From: an uncultured Clostridia bacterium
GTDB taxonomy: Bacteria > Bacillota > Clostridia > TANB77 > CAG-508
Length of the DNA: 64,000 bases
Reading direction: 5' to 3'
Assembly: GCA_904378095.1 (NCBI GenBank)
Contig: CAJFHE010000005.1
Location: 9,675 to 73,674, forward strand
The notes under the pieces were generated by a model. The model did no database searches. It saw only the letters and a program-made list of their open reading frames with translations, and had not been told where the DNA came from. A program made the translations under genes and the position numbers. Of the stretch, positions 5,562 to 23,122 are shown in pieces; position 1 is the stretch's first letter, and every line of letters begins with the position of its first letter.

Positions 5562-6010
5562 CTACGTATCTGCATATAGGGCAGTCGGTCTATAGAAACA
5601 ATGCTCCCCTAGTCTTGTATGAAATGTACCAGAGCCATTAGAAGGAAAAGTACTTCCACATGATGGTCTGAAAGGATTTAGATACCATAAGCATTCAACT
5701 ATTTCGTTTAATTTGTTGCCAGCCAATGCCCAATCTGCAATTTCATAATGTACATCAGTAGGATTCATATTATATATATTTTGTGGATTATACTGACCAT
5801 TTATTGTTTCTCTTACGCAATCAAACTGGCCAGGCTGAAATATAATATTGCGTATGCTACCTCCTTGTGACACTCTTGAATATTCACCTTCTACAGCCTG
5901 TACTCTGTTCATAATTACAGTTGCAACTGCTTTCATACCATTGTCTCCTTCACCGTCCGTGCCTCACATTGAACTACCCTTGCAATTAACTCCCTGTCAG
6001 AATATGCCAT
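5562..6010 (-). pseudogene. cwlJ: CwlJ/SleB-family spore cortex-lytic hydrolase with an interrupted reading frame
   Basis: The ATG at 6010 (RBS GGAGGAGG) gives MAYSDRELIARVVQCEARTVKETMV*. The rest (..DGEGDNGMKAVATVIMNRV.. to the stop at 5562) is in another frame. The frames meet at CGGACGG (5953-5959). A joined product would be about 149 aa, the size of CwlJ. Confidence 0.7.
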
Positions 6011-6179
6011 ATCCTCCTCCATTAAAGAAATTCTTTTTTCTAGATATTATATTCATTAATTTTGTTTAATGTGAGATTTCCTTATAGAATTATAGTTGTC
6101 AAAAATTTTTAATATTAAAGAAACTTTCTATGCATACTAGCATTTTTTTAATATTTATTGTATAATATATTTGTCACAT

Positions 6180-6265
6180 GCGAGTATGCTGGAACTGGCA
6201 GACAGGCACGTTTGAGGGGCGTGTGCTTTAAAAGCGTATGGGTTCAAGTCCCATTACTCGCACCA
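6180..6265 (+). tRNA. tRNA-Leu (anticodon GAG), class II with long variable arm, CCA encoded
   Basis: Folded by hand. Acceptor GCGAGTA/TACTCGC, anticodon stem CACGT/GCGTG with loop TTGAGGG (GAG), variable arm GCTT-TAA-AAGC, T arm ATGGG-TTCAAGT-CCCAT, 3' ACCA. Confidence 0.85.
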
Positions 6266-6307
6266 ATAATAATTTTTTGTAACAACGTAGTAAAATGGAG
6301 ACGTTAT

Positions 6308-7189
6308 ATGAATTTAACTTACAAAATAAAAGAAAACGATAGTTATAATAATATAAAAGAATTACTAAAAGCCTATTTTAAAATATCAGATAGGCTTTTA
6401 TTGAAATTAAAGAAAAATAATAAGATAAAGTTGAACGACAAAGAAACAAATATTAATTCTCCCCTATCTTTTGGCGACATTATAGAAGTTTTAATTGATT
6501 TTGAAGAAGATAATTCTAATATCATACCTGTAAAAATGGCTTTAGATATAATTTACGAAGATGATGCATATTTAATAGTTAACAAACCTGCTGGCATACC
6601 AATTCACCCATCAATGGAACATTTTATAGATAGCTTATCAAATGGTATAAAATATTATTTTGACTCAATTGATTTAAAGAAGAAAATTAGAGCAGTAAAT
6701 AGATTAGATAAAAACACATCTGGATTAGTCATTTTTGCTAAGAATGAATATATACAAGAATGCTTAATAAGGCAAATGAAAACTGAAAATTTTTATAAAG
6801 AATATATTGCACTTTGCGAAGGAGTTTTCGAAAAAGAAAAAGGCATTATAAATGCTCCCATCGCCCGCAAAGAAAATAGTATTATAGAAAGATGTGTTAG
6901 TGTTTCTGGAGATACTGCTATTACTGAATATGAAGTTTTAAAATATAATAAAGAAAAGAATTATTCTGTTGTTAAATGTGTGTTAAAAACTGGTCGCACT
7001 CATCAAATTCGTGTTCATATGAGTTATATTGGTCATCCATTACTTGGTGACACGCTATACGGAAATTCCTCAGAGTTAATTAATAGGCAAGGTTTGCATT
7101 CATACAAAACTAGCTTTATTCATCCAATATATAATAAGAAAGAACAATATATTGCTAACATTCCAAATGATATGCTTAGTTTGATTTAA
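6308..7189 (+). CDS. RluA-family 23S rRNA pseudouridine synthase (RluD-like)
   Basis: 293 aa from the ATG at 6308 (GGAG upstream). Motifs VNRLDKNTSGLVIFAK and GRTHQIRVH are present. The ORF-track start at 6158 runs through the tRNA and is an artefact. Confidence 0.85.
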   Translation: MNLTYKIKENDSYNNIKELLKAYFKISDRLLLKLKKNNKIKLNDKETNINSPLSFGDIIEVLIDFEEDNSNIIPVKMALDIIYEDDAYLIVNKPAGIPIHPSMEHFIDSLSNGIKYYFDSIDLKKKIRAVNRLDKNTSGLVIFAKNEYIQECLIRQMKTENFYKEYIALCEGVFEKEKGIINAPIARKENSIIERCVSVSGDTAITEYEVLKYNKEKNYSVVKCVLKTGRTHQIRVHMSYIGHPLLGDTLYGNSSELINRQGLHSYKTSFIHPIYNKKEQYIANIPNDMLSLI

Positions 7190-7198
7190 GTATTTCTC

Positions 7199-7229
7199 AA
7201 AAGCCAGCAGAGCTTATCTGCTGGCTTTT
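7199..7229. terminator. Bidirectional intrinsic terminator between the convergent rluD-like and ATPase genes
   Basis: AAAAGCCAGCAG-agcttat-CTGCTGGCTTTT: a perfect 8-bp GC-rich stem flanked by A and T runs. Confidence 0.8.
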
Positions 7230-7242
7230 ATTAATTTATATA

Positions 7243-9561
7243 TTAATATCCCAATTTTTTGTATATCTTTTGTTTTATTGTAAGAACTATTACATCTATC
7301 ACAGCAAATACAATAAATATTCCAAATTCTCTTGTGTTTATACTTGTTATTTGTAATATGTTTCTAAACAAAAATACTGCTAAGAAAAATCCCACAAATG
7401 TTGTACTAAATAAAAATACACGTAATTTGTTAAATGGTAAGCACACCTCTAAAACTGCCATTATGCTAACAAATCCAATTAATAGATACATAATTGTTAC
7501 TAATTGAGCTTGTGCAATATTTAAAACTGGTGCCATAAATGTAAGGAACACTATATTAAGCATTATTACAATTGCAAATGGTGCTGCATTTCGTAGTACT
7601 GTATGCAAAAACACACCTCTCACAGGCTTGCTATTTGGCTCAAATGAGATAAATAGTGATGTATATGCCTCAATTACTAAATCTATTAATGTAATTTGTA
7701 TTGGTAAAAATGGGAAAGCTGTATTTGTTAATATACAAAAGACTGTTAATAGCACAGAATATATAGTTTTAATAAAGAATATTCTAGCAACACTTGTAAG
7801 GTTATTAACAACTCTTCTTCCTTCCATTAAAACATCTTTAAGCACGCTAAAGTCTTGGTTTAAAAGTACAATTTGAGATACTTGTTTTGCTGCATCATTA
7901 GCTTCTGGTAAGGTAATACTGCAGTCAGCTTCTCTTAAAGCTATTACGTCATTAACCCCATCGCCTGTCATTGCTACTTGATGTCCCTTTGCTTGTAGTG
8001 CCTTTACAATAATACTCTTTTGATGAGGTAGTACTCTCGCGAAAATACTATATTTATCTACTATATCTACAATATCTGCATCAGAATCTAATGTTGATAA
8101 ATCAATATATGATTCATAATCTTCAAGTCCTGCCCTTTTAGCAATAGTTGATACAGTAACAGGGTTGTCTCCGGATATGATTTTTATATCAACTTCCTGG
8201 GTTTTAAAATATCCAAGCATTTCTTTTGCATTTTTTCTTAGTGGGTCTGCTAAAACAATTGAAGCTACAATAGCTAACTGCGGTAATTCTTCTAATTCTG
8301 GGTCTAGTTCTTCTTTAGTATAAGCAACACATAATGCTCTTTTTCCATCTTTTTGAGCAGCTGCTACACTTTGTGGTAATTCTACTCCAGCTTTAGCTAC
8401 CAATCTTTCTGGTGCCCCAACTATTATACTTCCAACATCTTTCAAAGTGACACTACTCCATTTTCTTTCGGATGAAAATGATATATCACTTATTTTTTCA
8501 TATTTTACCTCTCCTTTAAAGTGATTTTTAAGCGCCATAAAAGTTGCATTGCTATCATCTGTTAACTTCACATATGAATTCATTATATTATCAAAACTGT
8601 CTGGTAAAACGCTTTCATCATATTTTTCAACATCTATCACCTTCATTTTTCCTTCAGTAATAGTACCAGTTTTATCTAAGCATAAAGTATCCACATGTGC
8701 TAAAGTTTCTACACTATATAAATCTTGAACTAGGACTTCTTTTTTAGCAAGTTTAATTACGCCAGACTCAAGAGCAATACTTGTCAATAGCACAAATCCT
8801 TTTGGAAGCATTCCCAAAAGTGCTGCAGCGGTTGCTATAACTGATTGTTGCAACGTTGTCTCTCTAAAAACAAATGCTTGCACAAACAATATAACTCCTG
8901 CTGGGATAATAACGAAGCTTGTAAAGTTTGTAACTTTTTTCATTGAATTTAAGAGCTCAGAATTAACTTTTTTGTGTTTCTTTGTAGCATTTATAATTTG
9001 ATTTGCGAAATTGTCGTCTCCTACTTTCTCTATTTTTGCATAACATTTTCCACTTACAACATAACTACCTGATAAAAGCTTTGCGTCCTTTTCCTTTAAA
9101 ATAGTATCAGATTCACCAGTTAGGAGCGACTCATTTACTTCTATTTCTCCATTTATTACATATGCATCAGATGGAATCTGGTCACCTTGTTCAAGTAAAA
9201 TCACATCATCTATGACAATTTCATTTATATGGACTTCTTCTTGTTTTCCATTTCTTATAACTTTTGTTTTAGCAACTGTTAAAATTGATAATTTCTTTAC
9301 TAGATTTTTTCCATGAATTTCTTGTATTATTCCGATTAATACATTAATAATAATTATTAGAATAAAAACCATATTTGTGTACGCATGTACACATGCTAAT
9401 GCAATTGCAATTATTAAGTTAAATAAGTTAAAAAGTGTACAAACATTATCTCTTACAATTTGCCAATTGGATTTTAGGTTATTTGTATTCGAATTATTTA
9501 CCTTTCCCTCTTCAACTCTCTTTTGTACTTCTTCACTTGTTAATCCTTTTATTTCTTCCAT
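7243..9561 (-). CDS. Cation-transporting P-type ATPase (HAD-IC family, Ca2+/Mg2+-type)
   Basis: 772 aa with a Cation_ATPase_N-like start (LTSEEVQKRVEEGKVN), TGES, DKTGTIT and TGDGVNDV motifs, and about 10 TM segments. Confidence 0.85.
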   Translation of the reverse strand: MEEIKGLTSEEVQKRVEEGKVNNSNTNNLKSNWQIVRDNVCTLFNLFNLIIAIALACVHAYTNMVFILIIIINVLIGIIQEIHGKNLVKKLSILTVAKTKVIRNGKQEEVHINEIVIDDVILLEQGDQIPSDAYVINGEIEVNESLLTGESDTILKEKDAKLLSGSYVVSGKCYAKIEKVGDDNFANQIINATKKHKKVNSELLNSMKKVTNFTSFVIIPAGVILFVQAFVFRETTLQQSVIATAAALLGMLPKGFVLLTSIALESGVIKLAKKEVLVQDLYSVETLAHVDTLCLDKTGTITEGKMKVIDVEKYDESVLPDSFDNIMNSYVKLTDDSNATFMALKNHFKGEVKYEKISDISFSSERKWSSVTLKDVGSIIVGAPERLVAKAGVELPQSVAAAQKDGKRALCVAYTKEELDPELEELPQLAIVASIVLADPLRKNAKEMLGYFKTQEVDIKIISGDNPVTVSTIAKRAGLEDYESYIDLSTLDSDADIVDIVDKYSIFARVLPHQKSIIVKALQAKGHQVAMTGDGVNDVIALREADCSITLPEANDAAKQVSQIVLLNQDFSVLKDVLMEGRRVVNNLTSVARIFFIKTIYSVLLTVFCILTNTAFPFLPIQITLIDLVIEAYTSLFISFEPNSKPVRGVFLHTVLRNAAPFAIVIMLNIVFLTFMAPVLNIAQAQLVTIMYLLIGFVSIMAVLEVCLPFNKLRVFLFSTTFVGFFLAVFLFRNILQITSINTREFGIFIVFAVIDVIVLTIKQKIYKKLGY

Positions 9562-9604
9562 TTTATAGTTTCCTTTCTTAATTTTCTACAAAGCTGCTTT
9601 TCCT

Positions 9605-9633
9605 ATTATACAATTAACCTTGCCTTTTGACAA
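9605..9633 (-). promoter_or_regulatory. SigA-type promoter for the P-type ATPase gene
   Basis: The minus strand reads TTGTCA, a 17-nt spacer, then TATAAT, about 40 nt upstream of the ATG at 9561. Confidence 0.55.
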
Positions 9634-9771
9634 GACATTATTTAAAAATTAATATTTTTTATAAAATATGCTAGACTTTTTTTTGTTTTTTGTGTATGAT
9701 TATATAGTATTAAATAATTTGTGTGTTAGCGAAAGATAAACTTTCGACTTTTGTTGATTGGAGGATTAAAT

Positions 9772-10155
9772 ATGTTAAAATTTTCAAAAAAAGTAAAAAT
9801 TATATTCATTTTATTTATTATATTAATAGGTATCAATACTATAGTTTTGGCAACAGATATAAATATGAACTTGCCATCTGATGATGTTACTACATACGAA
9901 AATGGTACTGGAACAAACAATATTGATGACACTACTTCAACAAATGAGATACAAAATGACAATAGAGATATTACCGATGCAACTGATATGAGTGAGCCAC
10001 AAGATGATGTTGGTGGAACTGCTGCCCCATCAGATGTTAGCAGTATAGCACAAGAAAATATGAGTTTTTCAAATATTTTAAATATTTTATTAATTGCAGT
10101 AGGCGTAATTTTAATATTATTAGCAATTGCAATATTAATTAGATTAAGGTCATAA
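9772..10155 (+). CDS. Hypothetical exported protein with a C-terminal membrane anchor
   Basis: The ATG at 9772 follows GGAGGA. It has a signal-like N-terminus (MLKFSKKVKIIFILFILIGINTIVLA), an acidic/Thr-rich middle and a C-terminal TM helix. Confidence 0.5.
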   Translation: MLKFSKKVKIIFILFIILIGINTIVLATDINMNLPSDDVTTYENGTGTNNIDDTTSTNEIQNDNRDITDATDMSEPQDDVGGTAAPSDVSSIAQENMSFSNILNILLIAVGVILILLAIAILIRLRS

Positions 10156-10176
10156 TAAAAAATCTAGAACTTACCG

Positions 10177-10220
10177 AAACATGGTAACAGATTAAAATTT
10201 GTTACCATGTTTTATTTTTT
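10177..10220 (+). terminator. Intrinsic terminator
   Basis: AAACATGGTAAC-12 nt loop-GTTACCATGTTT followed by a T run. Confidence 0.75.
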
Positions 10221-10309
10221 TGTATATTTTATTTTAAAAAAGCAATAATATAAATAGAGATATTCTTTTAAATGCTCAAAACATAATTTCATATATAAGG
10301 AGGTCTAAA

Positions 10310-10759
10310 ATGAAAAAAAGATTTTTATTCACTTTAGTTGCAACCATTCTATTTTTATCTATCGCAATCTCTTCTTTTGCTATGGGTAATATGGCCAATG
10401 ATGTAAGAAACTTTGTAGGTGGAACAGAAAATACTATAGAAAATGTTGGAAATAATGTGGCAGGTGGAATAAAAAATGGTTTCAATACAGTTGAACATGG
10501 GGCTGAAAATGTTGCTTCTGACATGAAGTCTGGAGCACAAAAAGCCGGAAATTCAGTTATGGGTATGACAACAAATAATAATAATGGCGGATACACTGCA
10601 ACAAGAACATCTGGAAATGCAGCGATAGCAGGAATGTCAACTAATACTTGGACATGGATTATAGTTGGTATAACAGCTGCAGCTATAGTTATTCTTGTTT
10701 GGTCATATATAAAGCAAAAAAATAAAAACGACATTTATATTGACTCTGATGAATTATAA
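10310..10759 (+). CDS. Hypothetical Gly/Asn-rich exported protein with a C-terminal TM helix
   Basis: Strong RBS AAGGAGG 7 nt upstream, a signal peptide and a C-terminal TM. I treat the antisense ORF 10276-10734 as a shadow ORF. Confidence 0.55.
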   Translation: MKKRFLFTLVATILFLSIAISSFAMGNMANDVRNFVGGTENTIENVGNNVAGGIKNGFNTVEHGAENVASDMKSGAQKAGNSVMGMTTNNNNGGYTATRTSGNAAIAGMSTNTWTWIIVGITAAAIVILVWSYIKQKNKNDIYIDSDEL

Positions 10760-14923: not shown

Positions 14924-15625
14924 TCACTCAATTCTTTTCATATTTTCGTTTTCAATACAATTGCAGTTCTCAGGCTGTTTAAATCCTAAATACCAACTCA
15001 TGCCATTTCTATTTTGCCTTATTTCATTTTCTCTATTCATGAGCCCATCAAATGTCGTTGGAGCTGGCATTATTATAGGCTCACATGGTACCCAATTTGC
15101 TGGCATTGCTGCATTATTTGAATCAGCTATTTGCAAAGCTTGTAAACTTCTCAATATTTCGGGAATGCATCTTCCCACATTCATTGGATAAATTAAAATT
15201 AATCTTATTATTCCTTTATCGTCAATAATATATACATTTCTTACTGTTTCTGTGTTGCTCACATCATTTGATATCATACCGTACTTTCTCGCTATCTCTC
15301 CATTTCTGTCAGCTATGATCGGAAAAGGTACTCTTATACCTGTTTTACAAAAAATGTCATAAAGCCAAGCTAAATGCGAAGCATTCGAATCCACACTTAG
15401 TCCAATTAAGCATGTATTCATTCTTTCAAAGTATGTATTTGCCCTAGCAAACGAAATTATCTCTGTGGTACATACTGGGGTGAAATCGCCTGGGTGAGAA
15501 AAAAGTACTACCCATTTTCCTTTATAATCATTTAATGATATATTTCCCATTGTTGTTGTTGCTTCAAATTCTGGCGCCCTCTGCCCTATTCTAACGTTTC
15601 CATTCATCATTATTTCGTAATCCAT
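14924..15625 (-). CDS. Peroxiredoxin (Prx6/1-Cys-like AhpC/TSA family)
   Basis: 233 aa with the active-site context [20 protein letters not shown] and the C-terminal extension typical of this subfamily. Confidence 0.88.
   Translation of the reverse strand: MDYEIMMNGNVRIGQRAPEFEATTTMGNISLNDYKGKWVVLFSHPGDFTPVCTTEIISFARANTYFERMNTCLIGLSVDSNASHLAWLYDIFCKTGIRVPFPIIADRNGEIARKYGMISNDVSNTETVRNVYIIDDKGIIRLILIYPMNVGRCIPEILRSLQALQIADSNNAAMPANWVPCEPIIMPAPTTFDGLMNRENEIRQNRNGMSWYLGFKQPENCNCIENENMKRIE
15471..15554. repeat. Left copy of an 84-nt direct repeat, inside intact prx (codons about 25-52)
   Basis: 78/84 identical, ungapped and in the same orientation as 19988-20071 (hand alignment). Confidence 0.85.
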
Positions 15626-16077: not shown

Positions 16078-16127
16078 AAAAATAAACCTAAAATATTTGA
16101 AAAATTAAATATTTTAGGTTTATTTTT
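16078..16127 (-). terminator. Strong intrinsic terminator closing the RhuM operon
   Basis: AAAAATAAACCTAAAATATTT-gaaaaatt-AAATATTTTAGGTTTATTTTT: a perfect 21-bp stem with a U run. Confidence 0.8.
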
Positions 16128-16162: not shown

Positions 16163-17176
16163 TCAGATGTTATTTAAGTTTTTTGTTTCTTTTACTAACT
16201 CATCAAAGTCTGAAATGTAATTTTTATCTTGTATAACTCTATACTTTTTATATTCATCTAAAGCCAATTTATCTGCTATTTCTCTCTTTATTTTTCCGTT
16301 ATCCTTTAAAATATTATATTCATTAATTTTCAAGAATACTTCTAATTTTTCTTTCCATTCTTGCATTGAAATAATCTTACCTAGTTTTACTTGTCTTTCT
16401 GCATAGTCAAGATACATAGATACTAAATTATTTAATTCTGTAATTTCTTCTTGTGAAAGATAGTTTTTGGCTATTGTTACATCTGTTTCAAGTATTTTTC
16501 CATCTGGTGCATTTTTCCAAGTTGTTAATCCCATTTTTTCCTTTTTACTACTGGCTCTATTATAAATTATTTCAGGCGCTGTCATGCCAGTAATAGCAAA
16601 ATGCAACTTATTTTGAACATTTTTATAAAATTCTTGTGTCGTTTCACTATTTTTATCATAATCAAAACTACATTCTTTGTATATATCAGTTATCTTTTGA
16701 TAAAATCTTCTTTCACTTGCTCTAATTTCTTTTATTTTAACTAATAATTCATCAAAATAATCTTTTCCAAATTTAGGTCCATTTTTTAACATTTCACTAT
16801 TAACGACAAAGCCTTTTTTTATATATTCTTTTAAAGTTTTTGTAGCCCAAATTCTAAAATCTGTTGCTTCTTTTGAATTTACTCTATAACCAACTGCTAT
16901 AATTACATCTAAATTGTAAAAATTTGTCTTATATTTTTTTCCATCTGAAGCAGTTACTCTAATTTTTTGAGTAACTGAATCTTGCTCTAATTCTCTTGTT
17001 TTAAATATATTTTGTAAATGATATGTTATATTATTTTCTGCCACATTAAATAATTTTGACATTGATTTTTGAGTTAGCCAAAAGTCTTCTTCATTATATA
17101 AAACTTCAATAGATATATTTTCGTTATTTTGACTTTGGTATATAATTAAATCTTTTAAATTTTCTATATTGTTCAA
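16163..17176 (-). CDS. RhuM-family protein
   Basis: 337 aa. The N-terminus (LIIYQSQNNENISIEVLYNEEDFWLTQKSMSKLF...KYKTNFYNLDVIIAVGYRVNSKEATDFRIWATKTLKEYIKKGF) matches the RhuM pattern. It uses a TTG start with RBS GAGGTG inside the upstream gene's end. Confidence 0.8.
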   Translation of the reverse strand: MNNIENLKDLIIYQSQNNENISIEVLYNEEDFWLTQKSMSKLFNVAENNITYHLQNIFKTRELEQDSVTQKIRVTASDGKKYKTNFYNLDVIIAVGYRVNSKEATDFRIWATKTLKEYIKKGFVVNSEMLKNGPKFGKDYFDELLVKIKEIRASERRFYQKITDIYKECSFDYDKNSETTQEFYKNVQNKLHFAITGMTAPEIIYNRASSKKEKMGLTTWKNAPDGKILETDVTIAKNYLSQEEITELNNLVSMYLDYAERQVKLGKIISMQEWKEKLEVFLKINEYNILKDNGKIKREIADKLALDEYKKYRVIQDKNYISDFDELVKETKNLNNI

Positions 17177-17178
17177 TA

Positions 17179-17841
17179 TTAGTCACCTCTTTTTTTATTT
17201 GTTTCTATTATAAATTTAATATCTTCTATTGCTTTTTCTATATTCATCATTCCATTTCCAATAGGATAGTAAACTGGATACACTTTATATTCTTTTCCTG
17301 CAATTATTTTAAGAAAATTTTGTTTTCTGCATTGTGATACAGAAATATTTTGATTTAATACAATAGAACTAACTTGATTTCCTAATGTTATAATGATTTT
17401 AGGATCAATTATTTCTATCTCTTTGCATAATAAATCTAAATATTCACTATAAACAGAATTTGGTAATACTCTTGCATCTACTTGTGTACACTTTCCTAAA
17501 TTAGTTATGAAATACTTATGTTTTTCTACATTTTCATATACTAAATCTGCGAATTTTTCATCCCATTCTTGAGCTTTCTTCGCCATAATATTCTCATATA
17601 TTTCCTCATCAAGTAATCCTATTCTATAAAATAATTTCCATATATTTTTAGTTCCTATCCATGGAGACCTTCTTCCTCTCCAATTAGGCAATGATGCGAT
17701 ATTTCTACCTGTTGGATTCATAAAAACAAAACAAATATCTGGATTATTAATACATCCACCATTATATATAGATGTTAATTCTTTTGCTCCATATTTTATT
17801 TGTAATTTATCATATTCAACTTTTAAATCTTCTAATTGCAT
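17179..17841 (-). CDS. Uracil-DNA glycosylase superfamily protein (family-4-like layout, divergent motif A)
   Basis: 220 aa with FVFMNPTGR where family 4 has GEAPG, ITNLGKC where family 4 has TNxxKCRP, and ..IIITLGNQV.. downstream. Confidence 0.6.
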   Translation of the reverse strand: MQLEDLKVEYDKLQIKYGAKELTSIYNGGCINNPDICFVFMNPTGRNIASLPNWRGRRSPWIGTKNIWKLFYRIGLLDEEIYENIMAKKAQEWDEKFADLVYENVEKHKYFITNLGKCTQVDARVLPNSVYSEYLDLLCKEIEIIDPKIIITLGNQVSSIVLNQNISVSQCRKQNFLKIIAGKEYKVYPVYYPIGNGMMNIEKAIEDIKFIIETNKKRGD

Positions 17842-17853
17842 AATTTATTGCTC

Positions 17854-18453
17854 CTACTTACTACAATTATTTACTATAAAATCAATAACATCATCTTCTT
17901 TATAGTTCTTTGTATTTCTATTCCTGTCTTCTTCTGTTAAATCGACAAAATATTTATTACATTCTGGCATAATTGACATTGAGTCCAATGGATAACCAGT
18001 ATTTCTTTTTTCACATGGTTTGTCAACAAAATAGAAATGGCTTTTACTCCAACTATATTCTTTTGGTTCTTTTCCATCATATATTACCATTCCATATACC
18101 CATTTAGCTGTTAGCTTTCCACCATATTCTTTAACTAAATTTGAATAATACTTAATCATTTCATCATCATTTAACTCTTTTCCATTTACTCTTCTTACAT
18201 GAGTTCCTGGTTGCTTTTCAAAATCTTTTATATATAAAGCTGTATCTCCTGCTATTGTTGGTATTTTTGCTATCTTATAGCATGCTTGTGCTTTTATCAT
18301 AGCATTTTCTGTAACTGTTTTTCCATTTTCATTTACTTTAATGTTAATATTCAACTCATTTGGCGATATTATTTCAATGTCCATTCCTTCTAATCTTTTT
18401 TTCATTGATTCTATTTTGTATTTATTTCCAGTTGCATACAATAGTTTTTTCAT
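17854..18453 (-). CDS. Ham1/ITPase-family non-canonical purine NTP pyrophosphatase-like protein
   Basis: 199 aa with LLYATGNKYKIESM.., ENGKTVTENAMIKA and IAGDTALYI, which match the RdgB/Ham1 motif order. Confidence 0.65.
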   Translation of the reverse strand: MKKLLYATGNKYKIESMKKRLEGMDIEIISPNELNINIKVNENGKTVTENAMIKAQACYKIAKIPTIAGDTALYIKDFEKQPGTHVRRVNGKELNDDEMIKYYSNLVKEYGGKLTAKWVYGMVIYDGKEPKEYSWSKSHFYFVDKPCEKRNTGYPLDSMSIMPECNKYFVDLTEEDRNRNTKNYKEDDVIDFIVNNCSK

Positions 18454-18473
18454 AAACTTACCTCCTAAATATA

Positions 18474-19511
18474 TTATATACTATAATATATTTCTCCTTG
18501 ATTTTTGAAATTTAAAATTTCTTTTTTTATTTCATCATCTAATTCTGCAACTCTATAAATATTGTCTCTAATTTTTACCAAAGGATTTATATATCTTTTC
18601 TTTCCTTTAGCCTCTACACTATATTTTCCTTTTATTCTTTCTTTGCTCTTATAAACTTTATCGAAATTTTTAAATTTTTCCCATTGTTCTTTTATTTTTG
18701 CATTTCCTGTTTCATCTAATATTCTAACAATATCTTCTTCTTTTTGTTTCATAAACATCTTAGGCTCTAATATGCCATCATCCACCGCCATTCTTAAAAT
18801 ATCTGATAAAAAATTATTTGTTATAGTAGAAATACCACCACTCATAAATTTGCCATTATCTAAAACAGCCTTTGTCATTTTCTTAGCTAGCTCTATATCT
18901 TGAAAGCACATTTCATCTGATCCGTATTCGTTTTTTGCTATTGATATATCTTTATATATTTTATCTACTTCTTTCCAAGTAAGAATTCCTCTAGCTGTAC
19001 CTGTGTATAAATTATATTCCAATCTATCTGATGATAATTGTGGCATATCATTATCTGCGATTGGATACATTGCATAATCTGATACTTCTTCTACTTTTAT
19101 ATTATACTTTTTTAATATATCATTTATTTCTTTTGATTCTCTTATAATCTCTTCTGTAGCATTCTCTGTGCTTGTCTGTGTCTCTGCATCATTATTATAA
19201 TAATCAATCACATGTGAAAAAGTAGGAGTAGCTATGTCATGTAATAGCCCAGCTATAGATTGTTTTATATCGTTGGTAAAATTCCATACAATTAACCCTA
19301 CACCAACCGAATGTTCAAATCTTGAATAATTGTATTCGAATGTCTGTAATTTATTTGATATATAGTCTCTACCGCAGTTCTGTCCAACATATTTTAACCT
19401 TTTCATCTCTTTTGTCTGAATAATTTCATTCATAAAATCTGGCATACTCTGTGAGTATATGCTATGTAATTTTTTTATATTTTCTAAATCTTTTTCCGTT
19501 AACTCTTTCAT
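18474..19511 (-). CDS. HD-domain phosphohydrolase of the SAMHD1/dNTP triphosphohydrolase type
   Basis: 345 aa with SRFEHSVGVG, LLHDIATPTFSHVID and SSDRLEYNLY, resembling the RxEHSxGV / HDIGHxPFSH / DxxDY signature of dNTPase-type HD proteins. Confidence 0.65.
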   Translation of the reverse strand: MKELTEKDLENIKKLHSIYSQSMPDFMNEIIQTKEMKRLKYVGQNCGRDYISNKLQTFEYNYSRFEHSVGVGLIVWNFTNDIKQSIAGLLHDIATPTFSHVIDYYNNDAETQTSTENATEEIIRESKEINDILKKYNIKVEEVSDYAMYPIADNDMPQLSSDRLEYNLYTGTARGILTWKEVDKIYKDISIAKNEYGSDEMCFQDIELAKKMTKAVLDNGKFMSGGISTITNNFLSDILRMAVDDGILEPKMFMKQKEEDIVRILDETGNAKIKEQWEKFKNFDKVYKSKERIKGKYSVEAKGKKRYINPLVKIRDNIYRVAELDDEIKKEILNFKNQGEIYYSI

Positions 19512-19514
19512 TTC

Positions 19515-19739
19515 TTACCTTTCCTTTTCTTCCATATCTATATTTCTTACCTCTAAGCATTTATCTCGAAAAAAAGTAATTCCATTTAATCCTTTATTAT
19601 ATGCTTGCAATATATAATTCTGATTTTCTTGCCCACATAAGCTATCATTATATTTTCTAAAACTACCTCTTTCCCTTGATAAGTTTACAGATTCTACTTT
19701 ACTATAAAAATTAATAAATGTAAATAAATTTTTAGTCAA
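19515..19739 (-). other. 74-codon ORF with no ATG start; possible relic of a class II ribonucleotide reductase C-terminus
   Basis: It opens with TTG and has no convincing RBS. Its stop lies 3 nt before the HD start. The segment ILQAYNKGLNGITFFRDKC resembles the AWKxGxKGITVYRDGS region of NrdJ-type RNRs. The resemblance is weak and judged by eye. Confidence 0.25.
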
Positions 19740-19881
19740 TTCTCTTGTTGCTATGGAATCATATTGTTATTATAAATTTTATTATTTATTATATCTTTAA
19801 CATTTTTGTTAATAGGTATAATTTTTCTTAATGCTATTTCTTTTAAATTCTGTTTATATATTATTTCGACTTTCACATATA

Positions 19882-19931
19882 CGTTTGAAATCAAATCAGC
19901 GTGCAAAGGCACGCTTAATTGATTTCAAACG
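19882..19931. repeat. 50-bp near-perfect palindrome (23-nt arms, 4-nt loop)
   Basis: CGTTTGAAATCAAATCAGCGTGC-aaag-GCACGCTTAATTGATTTCAAACG pairs at 21 of 23 positions. Neither strand has a U run. Confidence 0.8.
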
Positions 19932-19987
19932 TAGTCTCAACAATGACAAATGGCAATTATCTTTCAGCCTTCCCCAAATTGTAAGCT

Positions 19988-20071
19988 CATACGGGGGTAA
20001 AATCTCCTGGGTGAGAGAAAAGTACTACCCATTTTCCTTTATAATCATTTAAACATATATTTCCCATTGTT
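19988..20071 (-). pseudogene. Peroxiredoxin gene fragment (right copy of the 84-nt direct repeat)
   Basis: It translates as [26 protein letters not shown] followed by TGA where intact prx has the catalytic Cys codon. Similarity to prx ends at both edges. Confidence 0.85.
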
Positions 20072-20208
20072 AAGGTTACTTATAATCCAGTAATTTTCAG
20101 ATTTCTATTTTTTTATTGAATGTATTTTTATACCATTTATTAAGTTGTTTTCTGTTATGGAAAATATAAACCTTTTCTTGATCAACTTTGCTTATTTTTT
20201 CTAGGACT

Positions 20209-20814
20209 TCATTTCTTATAACATTCATAGCTTCCATTCATTAAATAATTCTTCCTATACCATCTAGCGAATTGGTCTTTCGCATCTCCCCAGAATGTTG
20301 CTTCTCTTACATAGTCAATTTTTCTTAATTCACTTAAAGTTTTAGTTTCACCATCAGGTATATAAAACCTATCATGCCAACGTCCTCTTGTTCCTCTTGC
20401 TTCATATGCAATTGTTCCAGTTCCTCCACCAGAAAATACAATTGCTTTCTTGCCTGATTCACAGAAAGCAAAACAATGTTCTAATCTCGCTTTTCTATTT
20501 CTTTCGTTTTTAAACAATTCTAGGAATTTTTCTACTCCTATTTGTTTGTCAAAGTAATGATTATATGGTCCTGGCAATCCTCCTAATGCTTCTATGTATA
20601 ATCCACTATCCGATTTTAATACGGCTTTGCCTAATTTATTTGCACCATATTCAGCGCTAAAGGCTGCCACCTCTCCACATGTTTCTGCTTGGATTTCTAG
20701 TATTTCAAAATCAGGATTAACGATTTCTATATTAAAGCCATACTTTTTTCCAAAAAATTCATTAGCCTCATTAACTTTATTGGGATTAGTTGTTAAATAA
20801 ATTAATTTTTCCAT
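20209..20814 (-). CDS. Ham1/ITPase-family NTP pyrophosphatase-like protein (second, divergent paralogue)
   Basis: Start taken at the ATG at 20814 (GGAGAG RBS). Motifs LIYLTTNPNKVNEA.., ..EIQAETCGEVAAFSAEYGA.. and KSDSGLYIEALGGLPGPY are present. Confidence 0.65.
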   Translation of the reverse strand: MEKLIYLTTNPNKVNEANEFFGKKYGFNIEIVNPDFEILEIQAETCGEVAAFSAEYGANKLGKAVLKSDSGLYIEALGGLPGPYNHYFDKQIGVEKFLELFKNERNRKARLEHCFAFCESGKKAIVFSGGGTGTIAYEARGTRGRWHDRFYIPDGETKTLSELRKIDYVREATFWGDAKDQFARWYRKNYLMNGSYECYKK

Positions 20815-20932
20815 TTTATTTCTCTCCATAATAATATGATTTTAAATTTTCTATAATCATTACCTCTCATTGATGAATATAATATCATATCTCCTTAACC
20901 ATATACAAGATTTTATAAAATTTTAAACAATA

Positions 20933-23122
20933 TCAAGTTTTTTCATATTTTCCCAATTCTACTACATTTTGAAGAGGTCTAACAATTTTATCATTGTAGA
21001 GCACATTAAGCTCATGCAAAGGTCTTGTCATAGCCACATACAATAGTTTCATATCAATGTTTCTATCTGAATTATATTCTCCTTCTGTAGCATTAGTTAT
21101 AATAGCTCCATCAAATTCCAATCCTTTGGCAAGGTAACTGGTTATTGTACAAATTCCTCCGCTATATTCCGTATCTGAATTAGTTATATTTTTAATTTCT
21201 ATATTTTCGCTATTAAGCTTATTATTTATTGATGTGGCTTCTTCTTCATTTTTACATATTATAGCAACTGTTTTATATCCATTTTCTTGATATTTATTTA
21301 AAATAGATTTAATTGTGTAAACTTGTTCATCCTCATTTTTATAATTAATATATTTAACAAATTCGCCATGTCTTATTACTGGCTTTGCGGTATTTAGTTT
21401 TATATAATTTATTATATTATTTGCTGAATTCATAATTTCTGTTGTTGTTCTATAACTTTTCAGCAAATATTTCATTTCACATTTTTCTTCAAATGTATTC
21501 TCAATTACCGATTTCCAATCATCTATTCCTCTATATTGATATATAGATTGTGCCAAGTCTCCAAATATGCTAAACGTTGCATTTTTCAAAAGACTTTTTA
21601 AAGCATAAAAGCTAAAGTCACCCAGGTCTTGTGCCTCATCTATTGCTACTTGTCTAAACTGGTCAAATGGCTTTGCTCCGTATATTTTACATTTAAGATA
21701 TATTAGAGCACTTAAATCTTCAAACTCCACGTTTTTTTCTCTTATATTTTTTATATTCTTTTGAACTTTTTCTTCTATTTCATTATAAAACTCAGCATCA
21801 ACGTATTTTTTTATGTTTGTAAGAAATTTTATATAAGCATTCAATATATTTGGGATAAGATTTTTAAAATATTTCTTTATACTCGCCTTGCATCCATTCT
21901 TTACTTCTTTCTCCACAAAGTCGAATTTTTCTAATTCATTTCTATTAAGCTCCTTTGATACTACATTGATTTTGCTATGATACTGCTCTTTAAGTTTTAA
22001 AAATATCGTCTCATAATTGTCTTCAATATATTTTGACAACATTAAAATTGTTCTATCAACTCTCTTTTTAATAGTATCATAAAGATTTGAATCCTCTATA
22101 GAGAAATATATTTTTTCAATAATGTCTTTTGATATTACTTCATATCCTTTTATTTCTATATTTTTATTTGGAATTATATTTTCTTTTATGTCTTGTAAAA
22201 ATTTATCTAATAATTTTTTGAAATTCATAGAGACTTTAAATTTTTCATATTCTAGTGATTTTTCATTTGAAATAGATATAATTAATTTTTTATCTTCATC
22301 AATCATTTTTATATCTTCATTTAAGAATTCGGCACATAGCTCTTCATATGTTAATTGCTTTACATTCTCGACATCTAAGTCTGGTAAAACTCCTGAAATA
22401 TAATTAACGAAAAACTTATTTGGTCCGATAACTAAATACTGATTTGGCTTAATTTTATCACGGTTGTTATACACTAAATATGCTATTCTATGTAGTACAA
22501 CAGTTGTTTTTCCACTTCCTGCAACGCCTTGAATAATAATGTTTTTTGATAATGGCTCTCGTATAATTGAATTTTGTTCTTGTTGAATTGTAGATACAAT
22601 ATTTTTTAATCTATTGTCTGCACTTGCACTTAAATATGGTTTTAGTAAATCATCATTTGAAACAGTATCTACATCTTGAAAGCTTTTAAGCTCACTTTCC
22701 TCAATATCGTATTGTCTTTTTAATAATAATTCTCCTGTGCAAGTTCCCTCCGGTGCTTCATATGATGCTCTTCCAATATTACTATCATAATACATCGAAG
22801 ATATAGGTGCTCTCCAATCTATTGTAATATTATTATTGTCTTCGTCCATTACGCCAACTTTTCCAATATACAGCCTTTCTACACTTTCTTCGCCATCTCT
22901 TGCAAAGTCTAGTCTAGCAAAATAAGGTTTGTTTATGCTTTTTTGCATTAGCCTTAGTTTTTCTCCGTACATTTCAATTACGTTGTTTATCATTACCTCA
23001 TTATTCACGTAGACTTTTGGTGCTACTTCTATCCTTTGTTCGTAATAATGCATAACATCTTTGAATTTTTCTATGACATTATGCAGAGTCTCTTTCTCTT
23101 TTTGAAGCTCAATGTCATTCAT
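20933..23122 (-). CDS. helD: HelD-type UvrD/Rep superfamily-1 helicase (helicase IV-like)
   Basis: 729 aa with Walker A QGVAGSGKTTVVLHRIAYLVY, DEAQD and a C-terminal LYVAMTRPLHEL, in the HelD-like N-terminal arrangement. Confidence 0.8.
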   Translation of the reverse strand: MNDIELQKEKETLHNVIEKFKDVMHYYEQRIEVAPKVYVNNEVMINNVIEMYGEKLRLMQKSINKPYFARLDFARDGEESVERLYIGKVGVMDEDNNNITIDWRAPISSMYYDSNIGRASYEAPEGTCTGELLLKRQYDIEESELKSFQDVDTVSNDDLLKPYLSASADNRLKNIVSTIQQEQNSIIREPLSKNIIIQGVAGSGKTTVVLHRIAYLVYNNRDKIKPNQYLVIGPNKFFVNYISGVLPDLDVENVKQLTYEELCAEFLNEDIKMIDEDKKLIISISNEKSLEYEKFKVSMNFKKLLDKFLQDIKENIIPNKNIEIKGYEVISKDIIEKIYFSIEDSNLYDTIKKRVDRTILMLSKYIEDNYETIFLKLKEQYHSKINVVSKELNRNELEKFDFVEKEVKNGCKASIKKYFKNLIPNILNAYIKFLTNIKKYVDAEFYNEIEEKVQKNIKNIREKNVEFEDLSALIYLKCKIYGAKPFDQFRQVAIDEAQDLGDFSFYALKSLLKNATFSIFGDLAQSIYQYRGIDDWKSVIENTFEEKCEMKYLLKSYRTTTEIMNSANNIINYIKLNTAKPVIRHGEFVKYINYKNEDEQVYTIKSILNKYQENGYKTVAIICKNEEEATSINNKLNSENIEIKNITNSDTEYSGGICTITSYLAKGLEFDGAIITNATEGEYNSDRNIDMKLLYVAMTRPLHELNVLYNDKIVRPLQNVVELGKYEKT

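Follow-up and report, generated by a model that had tools for sequence, protein, structure and literature searches.

The locus lies in a 64,000-nucleotide stretch of DNA from an uncultured Clostridia bacterium (the window) and carries four tightly packed minus-strand genes, for an HD-domain phosphohydrolase, a Ham1-family protein, a UDG-like protein and a RhuM-family protein (Table 1). Recomputing the ORF list returned the five minus-strand ORFs of the first-pass annotation at the same coordinates, with gaps of 3, 20, 12 and 2 nt between successive ORFs. The 74-codon ORF among them is not a gene, however, but consists of two leftover pieces of an NrdJ-like gene. The GAGGTG assigned to RhuM is present 7 nt upstream of its TTG start, within the UDG-like gene, and the hairpin that had been read as a terminator indeed has a perfect 21-bp stem, with an 8-nt loop and a following UUUUU; its 106-nt stretch folds to -21.8 kcal/mol (z = -4.9 vs shuffles). 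No promoter was identified for the string; the upstream region of its source cluster (see below) is deleted, and a strong hairpin lies upstream of the HD gene. The GC content is 24% at 16-18 kb, compared to about 29-30% across the remaining window. At least 12 contigs, assembled from different samples, share this arrangement and encode the same hybrid Ham1 sequence, which argues against an assembly artefact; the four tightly packed genes are confirmed as real.

Table 1 Features of the locus, in window coordinates
Feature	Position	Strand	Remarks
Intrinsic-terminator-like hairpin	16078-16127	(-)	closes the gene string
RhuM-family ORF	16163-17176	(-)	337 aa, TTG start
UDG-like ORF	17179-17841	(-)	220 aa
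Ham1-family ORF	17854-18453	(-)	199 aa
Crossover interval	18205-18220	(-)	within the conserved EKQPG codons of the Ham1 gene
HD-domain phosphohydrolase ORF	18474-19511	(-)	345 aa
NrdJ-like ribonucleotide-reductase-family gene relic	19512-19764	(-)	match to L002; holds the 74-codon ORF
74-codon ORF	19515-19739	(-)	part of the NrdJ-like relic
Strong hairpin	19880-19933	(-)	between peroxiredoxin fragment and reductase relic
Peroxiredoxin gene fragment (about codons 19-51)	19988-20086	(-)	repeat search, family D1

The domain assignments of all four proteins held up in Pfam (RhuM, UDG, Ham1, HD), and the motifs quoted earlier (RFEHSVGV, LLHDIATPTFSH, SSDRLEY and FMNPTG) were all found. The HD protein matches PF01966 at 4e-7, and the top Foldseek matches of its AlphaFold2 model (pLDDT 95.6) are 3irh/2o6i/4lrl (EF1143), 2q14, 2hek and SAMHD1, with TM 0.52-0.69, supporting the proposed SAMHD1-type protein with an EF1143/SAMHD1 fold. 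The alteration of HDxxHxPFSH is also real: the second His is replaced throughout this HD family. H67, H91, D92, H100 and D162 are invariant across 26 HD homologues, and the metal ligands are predicted to be intact. With SAMHD1/EF1143 and dGTPase-type defence the protein shares the HD fold, the metal ligands H...HD...D, and RxxH and DRLEY-type motifs. It differs in being about 100 residues shorter than EF1143, in the missing second His, in giving no PADLOC dGTPase hit, and in a native context that looks biosynthetic. The gene is under purifying selection (dN/dS = 0.14).

The UDG-like protein matches PF03167 at 1.5e-7 (32 bits) and scores far under the TIGR00758 cut-off; like it, the HD and Ham1 proteins fall below NCBIfam equivalog cut-offs. 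It is a member of a compact family-4-derived clade and a putative DNA glycosylase. Motif 1 is FMNPT, with (I/M)NPT as the form in the clade, and the unusual FMNPTG noted before is genuine; motif 2 (YYPIGNG) lacks a histidine and motif 3 is FITNLGKC. The motifs do not vary among 81 sequences, and for the most part they persist at identities as low as 25%. The gene has a dN/dS of 0.05. The AlphaFold2 model (pLDDT 80.8) matches family-4 UDGs, UdgX and MUG/TDG in Foldseek at TM about 0.6, and a profile search of PDB sequences found 4zbx at 6e-16. The Ham1 protein (PF01725 at 1.3e-21) belongs to a divergent subfamily, Ham1a, in which T8, N10, K13 and D70 are invariant in the protein alignment. On visual inspection of the alignment, Ham1a has no C-terminal SHR-type motif of the kind found in RdgB/ITPA, and dITP or XTP can therefore not safely be assumed as its substrate. 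Judged by residue conservation, the active sites of the HD, Ham1 and UDG-like proteins do not appear dead. RhuM matches PF13310 at 2.5e-103 (345 bits) and, over its full length, PDC-S05 (8.6e-140), which PADLOC lists as a candidate defence system of one gene; we found no solved RhuM structure.

Upstream of the HD gene are remnants of other genes. The reductase relic is two pieces joined over a 454-bp internal deletion, with the 5' part gone: window 19764-19623 matches positions 9286-9427 of the sister genome L002 (94%), and window 19630 onward matches L002 from 9882. The intact L002 gene (8309-9997) encodes 562 aa with PF02867 at 3.3e-77, while the 74-codon ORF matches NrdJ models over only about 40 residues. 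Another locus, L184, keeps a larger part of the reductase gene with the same internal deletion, an intermediate which indicates that the cluster decayed stepwise. The peroxiredoxin fragment is a 99-nt direct repeat, 88% identical, of 15471-15569 within the intact peroxiredoxin gene at 14924-15625, and is 89% identical to the L002 peroxiredoxin gene. The hairpin between the two relics has 25-nt arms that are 92% complementary, and its 101-nt stretch folds to -36.4 kcal/mol (z = -7.0). It is terminator-like and its inner stem was picked up by the terminator scan, but the outer stem has no clear U-run after it; the arm sequence has no second copy within the window.

The source of the reductase relic is cluster A, a conserved 8-11-gene nucleotide-metabolism cluster of related Clostridia that is found at three different chromosomal sites. 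Its order is PfkB kinase, NrdJ-like reductase, HD, Ham1, methyltransferase, optional DHH, deaminase and PLP decarboxylase genes, a dTMP/dCMP-kinase-like gene and a U32 hydroxylase-like gene. HD adjoins Ham1 in every copy.

The quartet was assembled recently from two mobile gene sets that are unrelated to each other, through a single homologous crossover inside the Ham1 gene. BLAST blocks matched 19630-18173 to L002 and 18330-16146 to L090/L091, the latter stretch ending just short of the terminator hairpin. Among 277 informative sites in the Ham1 gene, almost all of the first ~97 are A-type, apart from a few mismatches, and the other ~180 are B-type with one exception. There is one switch point, between the last A-type site (18220) and the first B-type site (18205), and the protein alignment agrees, with codons 1 to about 78 of cluster-A type and the rest of cassette-B type. 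On recomputation, 19630-18220 is 97.0% identical to part of cluster A in L002, with no match in L090, and 18205-16146 is 97.7% identical to the Ham1/UDG-like/RhuM cassette of L090. Both pieces have moved horizontally, since identity in the host flanks is no more than 77-85% with L002 and about 70% with L090. The first is a decaying remnant of cluster A, comprising reductase scraps, the HD gene (inherited from the cluster, its protein 97% identical to the L002 counterpart) and the first ~78 Ham1 codons. The second, which has spread horizontally as a cassette, carries the Ham1, UDG-like and RhuM genes; at the corresponding site the sister genome has no UDG-like or RhuM gene.

This history largely refutes the main idea of the first-pass annotation, that the four genes form a single integrated defence or surveillance system in which each needs the others. 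The 2-20 nt gaps, the shared strand and terminator, and the fixation of the arrangement in the species would fit such a system, as would partial combinations elsewhere: UDG-like/RhuM/HD in L158, L160, L179 and L180, and Ham1/UDG-like/RhuM in L090, L132 and L175. However, one recent crossover brought the quartet together, the cluster that supplied HD pairs it with quite different partners, and outside the window species we found no locus with all four genes within 5 kb. Gene order and spacing are also different in each lineage, and a RhuM-domain PDC-S05 gene was protective alone when tested (bioRxiv 10.1101/2024.09.26.614923). We consider a four-gene system decidedly improbable. Neighbourhood conservation extends to pairs and triples, which recur elsewhere, whereas we found the full quartet in this species only. 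These recurring combinations, and a Ham1a-HD fusion in one protein (L066), fit a shared theme of non-canonical nucleotides, although the quartet itself is not an evolved unit.

To put numbers on these associations, we reduced 93 UDG-like loci to 77 non-redundant contexts. RhuM is the commonest neighbour, lying within 5 kb in 14 of the 77; Ham1a does so in 11 (adjacent in 9) and the HD family of the window in 5. Some nucleotide hydrolase (Ham1, HD, NUDIX or His-phosphatase) occurs within 5 kb in 22/77, and none in the other 55. For comparison, a control set of 79 genome loci anchored on HD, 1.24 Mb in all, contained no RhuM, no UDG-like and only 2 Ham1a genes. The 64 neighbours of Ham1a/UDG-like pairs include 7 GNAT, 5 NUDIX, 2 Maf and 2 HD genes, with few PADLOC hits; these surroundings are mostly house-cleaning and detoxifying enzymes, not classical defence genes. 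A large serine recombinase adjoins the UDG-like gene in 8 groups, and some of the proximity between UDG-like and RhuM genes may reflect a shared insertion site. The L158 locus is a junkyard of element fragments.

We think it probable, if far from certain, that the region is mobile-element cargo of mosaic origin, in which Ham1 and the UDG-like protein remove non-canonical bases and RhuM acts independently. The Ham1/UDG-like pair would be the conserved working unit: the divergent Ham1 pyrophosphatase would cut a non-canonical (d)NTP down to its monophosphate, and the glycosylase, with its motif-1 Asn and no motif-2 His, would remove the corresponding base after its entry into DNA. The HD enzyme, which resembles EF1143/SAMHD1, is intact and subject to purifying selection, could serve as a second pool-level hydrolase, the three together excluding the abnormal base from both pool and DNA. 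RhuM would be an independent toxin or defence protein travelling with the cassette, probably co-transcribed. The benefit may be house-cleaning for host or element, or phage exclusion. One of the closest known parallels to the pair is house-cleaning with base excision repair (RdgB/ITPA, MutT/NUDIX, Maf and the UDG superfamily): the N-terminal catalytic residues of Ham1 are alike, the motif-1 Asn of the glycosylase is as in MUG and SMUG1, and NUDIX, Maf, HD and GNAT genes surround the pairs. In contrast to those scattered core genes, the pair is mobile and operon-like, and both proteins are of divergent subfamilies below the equivalog cut-offs, Ham1a without what we take to be the C-terminal motif of RdgB.

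Documented anti-phage roles of UDG-fold glycosylases and RhuM make a defence role possible. Brig1 and Brig2 are described as UDG-fold glycosylases that protect from phages whose cytosine or thymidine is modified (PMC11078745; bioRxiv 10.1101/2025.10.29.685425). A toxin function has been proposed for the RhuM domain in R-M loci (PMC3710099), and a PDC-S05 representative reportedly lowered T7 and T5 plating about 1000-fold (bioRxiv 10.1101/2024.09.26.614923). RhuM here is a candidate single-gene defence system in its own right; it resembles PDC-S05 and the RhuM toxin domain of R-M/PrrC loci in its full-length match and its variable, horizontally acquired surroundings, but is start/stop-coupled to a glycosylase gene, not inside an R-M locus. 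By analogy, the genes could form a two-tier anti-phage module, in which a Brig-type glycosylase excises a modified phage base, Ham1a, with HD where it is present, destroys the modified dNTP, and RhuM provides a second, independent layer. As described for Brig1 and Brig2, the UDG-like protein has a UDG fold with family-4 UDGs as best structural match and lies in AT-rich, horizontally transferred DNA, often beside recombinases and element remnants; a defence gene, RhuM, adjoins it and is its commonest neighbour overall. However, gut Bacillota have many members of the UDG-like family, which is tightly conserved among them, and the gene often has a nucleotide pyrophosphatase as its partner, a pairing that does not feature in the available descriptions of Brig1 and Brig2. 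Its dN/dS of 0.05-0.18 and invariant motifs are unlike fast-evolving defence genes, and the pair's neighbours are mainly of the house-cleaning kind. As the first-pass annotation stated, no named system matches, the HD, Ham1 and UDG-like proteins having no hit in PADLOC 2.0 (which is older than Brig1). A HAM1-like protein named in PDB entry 8zsg, KomB, belongs to the Kongming defence system (KomABC), but our Ham1 match to this entry is not significant (E = 0.13) and the window string has no SIR2 or deaminase partner. A two-tier module is unlikely on balance, though we take it seriously.

Another reading starts from cluster A, which might make an unusual pyrimidine nucleotide (e.g. hydroxylated or methylated), with Ham1a, HD and the UDG-like protein as self-protection or resistance, and the cassette as a mobile resistance module for non-producers. 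One Ham1 subfamily (51-58% identity) is indeed common to cluster A and the UDG-like neighbourhood, HD and Ham1 are adjacent in all cluster copies and fused in L066, and the cluster has a TrhP/UbiU-like hydroxylase, a methyltransferase, a cytidine-deaminase-like protein, kinases and the reductase. Some phages reshape the dNTP pool in a comparable way, through the dCTPase, hydroxymethylase and dNMP kinase of T4 or DatZ, MazZ and PurZ of Z-genome phages; in these phages, as in cluster A, base-modifying enzymes and a dedicated kinase accompany a dNTP triphosphohydrolase or a pyrophosphatase. Cluster A, in contrast, is chromosomal in Clostridia, with only a remnant in the window, includes a U32 hydroxylase-like protein and an NrdJ-like reductase, and has no polymerase or phage genes. 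The antidote reading is purely inferential, and a literature search found nothing on it. The conserved core of cluster A has no exporter, and only HD, Ham1 and His-phosphatase of its genes were found near UDG-like genes. We regard it as improbable.

Capture of a nucleotide-metabolism cassette from a phage, also suggested by the first-pass annotation, is not borne out and seems very improbable. UDG-like genes do occur on 5 IMG/VR contigs, 2 of which carry UDG-like/RhuM/HD, and one cluster A copy adjoins a tyrosine integrase. Yet none of the four proteins matched a PHROG family, the relatives in 2.9 million viral contigs numbered just 5 for UDG-like, 5 for HD and 7 for Ham1a, the last mostly remote, and the window around the module has no phage structural or replication genes. 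That these are ordinary housekeeping genes for repair and pool sanitation, conserved in synteny, is hardly credible either. All genes of the string are under purifying selection, distant HD homologues lie near nth, mutT-like, nrdDG and ksgA genes, and in one lineage the UDG-like gene is next to rbgA-rnhB. However, the 77 contexts contradict conserved synteny, the sister genome lacks the UDG-like and RhuM genes at this site, and the cassette is far more similar between hosts than their flanks are. A second, separate Ham1 gene, closer to RdgB, is already present in the window at 20209-20829.

The first-pass annotation had described an operon of five closely spaced ORFs closed by a terminator, and this layout was confirmed: the intergenic gaps are 3, 20, 12 and 2 nt, the GAGGTG upstream of the RhuM TTG start and every quoted motif are present, and the terminator has a 21-bp stem without mismatches and then a U-run (z = -4.9 against shuffles). 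Pfam upheld all four family assignments, with 30.7 bits for HD (PF01966, cut-off 22), 77.7 bits for Ham1a, the Ham1 protein of the module (PF01725, cut-off 22.5), 32 bits for the UDG-like protein (PF03167, cut-off 24.3) and 345 bits for RhuM (PF13310, cut-off 33.7). The 74-codon ORF aligns to NrdJ models over ~40 residues only and is a relic of an NrdJ-like reductase gene. In the related contig L002 an intact 562-aa reductase-family gene (PF02867, 3.3e-77) ends 4 nt ahead of the HD gene; the window retains two pieces, equivalent to L002 9286-9427 and 9882 onward, with a 454-bp internal deletion between them and the 5' part lost. A contig of the same species, L184, carries a longer remnant with the identical internal deletion, and the reductase decay was thus stepwise. 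Across all module genes dN/dS is 0.05-0.37, which amounts to purifying selection.

Coordinates of features in the window and in related loci (L-handles)
Feature	Sequence	Coordinates	Strand	Remarks
Terminator	window	16078-16127
RhuM	window	16163-17176	-
UDG-like	window	17179-17841	-
Ham1a (hybrid)	window	17854-18453	-
HD	window	18474-19511	-
74-codon ORF	window	19515-19739	-
Cluster A remnant	window	18220-19764		rest of cluster absent
Peroxiredoxin repeat, downstream copy	window	15471-15569
Hairpin	window	19880-19933		25-nt arms, -36 kcal/mol, z = -7; single occurrence in window
Peroxiredoxin gene fragment	window	19988-20086		99 nt
Ham1b (separate Ham1 gene)	window	20209-20829
HelD RNA-polymerase recycling motor	window	20933-23122		729 aa, UvrD-like; NF041464 451.8 bits, cut-off 419
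Cluster A (8-11 genes)	L002	7469-17413
Cluster A (8-11 genes)	L082	7468-15150
Cluster A (8-11 genes)	L085	7464-17418
Three small genes	L001	7904-9412		between HelD and peroxiredoxin fragment
Ham1a-HD fusion	L066	9368-11023		551 aa; Ham1a residues 2-193, HD family residues 212-537
Tandem HD paralogues	L038	9965-13035
Tandem HD paralogues	L055	9989-13069
RhuM paralogues and recombinase	L162, L170, L173	~5700-10500		downstream of UDG-like gene

By sequence comparison with related contigs, the module is a chimera of two parents, with one crossover inside Ham1a. From 19630 to 18220 identity between the window and L002 is 97.0%; in the housekeeping flanks of L002 it is only 77-85%. From 18205 to 16146 it is 97.7% identical to contigs L090/L091, in which Ham1, UDG-like and RhuM genes are flanked by a uvrA-like gene and yebC-spoIIIA, and these flanks share only ~70% identity with the window's own spoIIIA region. 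Within the Ham1 gene 277 sites tell the two parents apart: almost all of the first ~97 informative sites are of the L002 type and the remaining ~180 are of the cassette type except one, with one parental switch between 18220 and 18205, within the conserved EKQPG codons. The hybrid protein is identical on at least 12 contigs, and the gene order on at least 12 contigs with identical hybrid Ham1 is, without exception, HelD, Ham1b, HD, Ham1a, UDG-like, RhuM and peroxiredoxin. The metagenome contig L185 equals the window at 100% identity across 16.6 kb, and the related contigs are labelled in the database as uncultured Clostridium sp. Close spacing and a coherent-seeming domain set can stem from a single recombination between paralogous genes, and close gene spacing is not necessarily a sign of selection for a system.

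The proposal that HD, Ham1, UDG and RhuM work as one system was not borne out, since the quartet is a chimera of two sources and all quartet contigs found come from the window's species. Fetching of 93 UDG-like loci gave 77 non-redundant contexts; neither in these other UDG-like contexts nor in 79 HD contexts was the quartet found in an independent lineage, and only pairs and triples occurred (UDG-like/RhuM/HD in L158; Ham1/UDG-like/RhuM in L132 and L175). Within 5 kb of the UDG-like gene, and in brackets directly adjacent to it, we found RhuM in 14 (6) of the 77 groups, an ABC ATPase in 12 (0), Ham1a in 11 (9), the RbgA GTPase in 11 (2), a large serine recombinase in 11 (8), NUDIX in 8 (3), the HD family of the window in 5 (2) and a His-phosphatase in 3 (2). 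At least one nucleotide hydrolase lies near the UDG-like gene in 22 of the 77 groups. The families most represented among the 64 neighbours of Ham1a/UDG-like pairs are GNAT (7), NUDIX (5), Maf (2) and HD (2), and PADLOC matches are few. The control set of 79 loci (1.24 Mb), built around more distant HD homologues, lacked RhuM and UDG-like genes altogether and had Ham1a only twice, in L002 and as the L066 fusion; next to the HD genes there lie nth, a mechanosensitive channel gene, ksgA, NUDIX and nrdDG. The first impression from this HD-anchored census, that the families never co-occur, was dropped because the UDG-anchored census showed real but partial links. The censuses together show recurrent accessory cargo with a flavour of nucleotide house-cleaning, which differs both from core synteny and from a classical defence island. 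In L158 the genes lie amid resolvase, relaxase, Bro-N and KilA-N protein fragments. A literature search for the gene combination found no relevant paper.

Two sets of observations from these loci stand apart. The Ham1a-HD fusion of L066 is from an uncultured Clostridium genome, and the HD gene is present as tandem paralogues in two Clostridium genomes (L038 and L055). In L162, L170 and L173 the UDG-like gene is followed immediately downstream by two or three RhuM paralogues and a large serine recombinase that is in some cases split; this may reflect either a hotspot of insertion or a variable locus driven by the recombinase.

The HD protein had been described as SAMHD1-type with an altered HDxGHxPFSH motif. 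Its fold and metal ligands agree with this: H67, H91-D92 and D162 are invariant among 26 homologues (39-71% identity), and the AlphaFold2 model (pLDDT 95.6) has EF1143, BT4208, Aq_1910 and SAMHD1 as its best structural matches, with Foldseek hits to 3irh, 2o6i and 4lrl at E ~1e-8 (TMq 0.64-0.69) and a TMq of 0.52-0.56 to SAMHD1. The motif reads HDIATPTFSH; the first His after the HD pair is replaced, its position being T, A, S or M in 26/26 sequences, whereas the second, H100, is invariant in all 26. The protein is ~100 residues shorter than EF1143, and against PADLOC models, including dGTPase and dCTP deaminase, it matched no family at E <= 0.01.

The HD gene of L002, L082-84 and L085-87 (60-97% identity) sits within a conserved gene string, cluster A, found at three different chromosomal sites, one of which adjoins a tyrosine integrase. 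The string begins with a PfkB kinase, the NrdJ-like reductase, HD, Ham1 and a methyltransferase; optional genes follow (DHH/pyrophosphatase-like, cytidine-deaminase-like and PLP-decarboxylase), and it ends with a dTMP/dCMP-kinase-like gene and a 695-aa protein with a TrhP/UbiU-like U32 domain. No member reaches an NCBIfam cut-off, and a literature search for the cluster found no relevant paper. Cluster A has the look of a chromosomal pathway dealing with a modified pyrimidine nucleotide, either hydroxylated or methylated.

Ham1a retains the N-terminal TxNxxK motif and catalytic acids of its family, since T8, N10, K13, E49 and D70 do not vary in alignment A3 and E42 hardly does. In Ham1/RdgB/ITPA proteins a C-terminal SHR-type motif specifies the base; no conserved H-R is visible within the last 30 residues of the Ham1a subfamily (A3). 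The HMMER alignment to E. coli RdgB spans residues 1-112 only, the C-terminal part not being alignable, and Ham1a scores 66-79 bits against NCBIfam equivalog cut-offs of 145-272 (TIGR00042, NF0113xx). It matched no PADLOC model, and a likeness to Kongming KomB was rejected as the similarity was not significant.

The UDG-like model (pLDDT 80.8) is closest in fold to family-4 UDGs, UdgX and MUG/TDG, with Foldseek probability 1.0 to 1ui0, 4zbx, UdgX, MUG and TDG; its profile aligns the C-terminal two-thirds to 4zbx at 6e-16, and matches TDG far more weakly (E ~3e-3). Motif 1 deviates from GEAPG as first noted: it is FMNPT in the window and (I/M)NPT in the clade, without the family-4 GE(A/G)PG, and its invariant Asn, N42, stands at the catalytic-Asn position of families 2 and 3. 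Motif 2 reads Y-Y-P-I-G-N-G; at the position of the His of families 1 and 4 the clade has Tyr or Phe, and family 2 also is without the motif-2 His (PMC5387724). Motif 3 (TN..KC) retains the Asn of families 4 and 5 and is the sole family-4 motif in common. Family 4 (UDGa) was rejected since motifs 1 and 2, the Cys set and the TIGR00758 score (36 bits against a 125 cut-off) all fail; TIGR00758 and NF040953, both family-4-type, are the only NCBIfam matches and both are far under cut-off. Family 6 (hypoxanthine-DNA glycosylase), whose motif 1 is without a catalytic Asn or Asp (PMC5387724), was rejected because the motif-1 Asn is present and its NCBIfam model is not matched. An Fe-S cluster was likewise rejected for the window's clade, in which C171 is variable and the CxxC absent.

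In alignment A5, distant UDG-like members at 25-35% identity (including P0296, P0301, P0323, P0324, P0330 and P0346) keep an N-terminal CxxC and the Cys in PCYFP. These resemble the Fe-S family-4 UDGs, in contrast to the window's clade, and their retention there and loss here suggest that the window's clade derives from family 4 and has lost the Fe-S cluster, as judged from the alignment. Close relatives number in the thousands (the best 120 are each at least 79% identical), yet clustering at 50% leaves only 373 representatives, many fragmentary, making the family at once compact and abundant. The clade is very abundant in gut Bacillota, combines its catalytic motifs in a way that fits none of the six classical families and may be an undescribed glycosylase family.

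On our best reading the region is a mosaic, and a Ham1-type pyrophosphatase together with a new-looking putative glycosylase of the UDG superfamily forms its conserved functional unit. An orphaned EF1143-like HD enzyme would supplement this pair and an independent RhuM gene would accompany it, and Ham1a, UDG-like and HD would jointly bar a non-canonical base from the pool and from DNA. The recurrent pairing of UDG-like with a divergent Ham1, itself also found beside or fused to an EF1143-like HD, predicts a common non-canonical substrate.

An anti-phage role of the pair is a live alternative, because anti-phage glycosylases with a UDG fold are known, namely Brig1/Brig2 (PMC11078745; bioRxiv 10.1101/2025.10.29.685425), and because RhuM is a defence candidate. 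RhuM matches, at full length, the PADLOC candidate system PDC-S05 (PDLC04851, 8.6e-140, residues 5-333). A PDC-S05 gene by itself reportedly cut T7 and T5 plating ~1000-fold (bioRxiv 10.1101/2024.09.26.614923), and RhuM has been proposed as a toxin domain of R-M/PrrC loci (PMC3710099). What the UDG-like protein is shown to share with Brig1/Brig2 is only the superfamily fold and the best structural match, and the UDG-like protein matched no PADLOC model. A PDB sequence search with RhuM gave no match. Capture of a phage cassette, the other origin proposed at first, found no backing: a PHROG search with all four proteins gave no match, and an IMG/VR search for relatives of the module enzymes returned very few. 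If the pair were anti-phage, glycosylase-based immunity would gain hydrolysis at the level of the pool.

A speculative extension of the pyrophosphatase-glycosylase reading, which we consider unlikely, is that the mobile pair of Ham1a and UDG-like, for which HD or NUDIX would be alternative partners, forms a dedicated filter in two tiers against a single, specific modified base, used in defence or resistance. The modified dNTP would be hydrolysed in the pool and the base excised from DNA. In defence, such a filter would act on phages with modified genomes and widen Brig-type glycosylase immunity to the nucleotide pool; in resistance, it would act on a modified nucleotide from cluster-A-type pathways of neighbouring bacteria.

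The window has a GC content of ~29-30% and carries nearly all of its genes on the minus strand. An Rfam scan of 14-24 kb gave two chance-level matches only, and thus no riboswitch or RNA element in that interval; a promoter scan gave 39 sites, where shuffles lead one to expect 40.8, so that none can be named as a promoter. The peroxiredoxin gene fragment upstream of the module is an 88% identical direct repeat of the downstream copy, and the intact peroxiredoxin gene follows the module. This repeat was rejected as attL/attR, since no recombinase lies between the copies and the interval is a two-source mosaic. Between the fragment and the reductase relic is the hairpin, perhaps a scar of recombination or else a terminator serving the HelD-Ham1b unit upstream. 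Gabija was rejected for the 729-aa protein, which is HelD; its PADLOC GajB matches are weak and arise because a helicase fold is common to both. The site between HelD and the peroxiredoxin fragment is a hotspot varying between strains. In L001, from a strain 96-99% identical to the window, the three small genes at this site encode AAA_33 and AAA_28-type kinases and a 130-aa protein of no assigned family, where the window has Ham1b instead.
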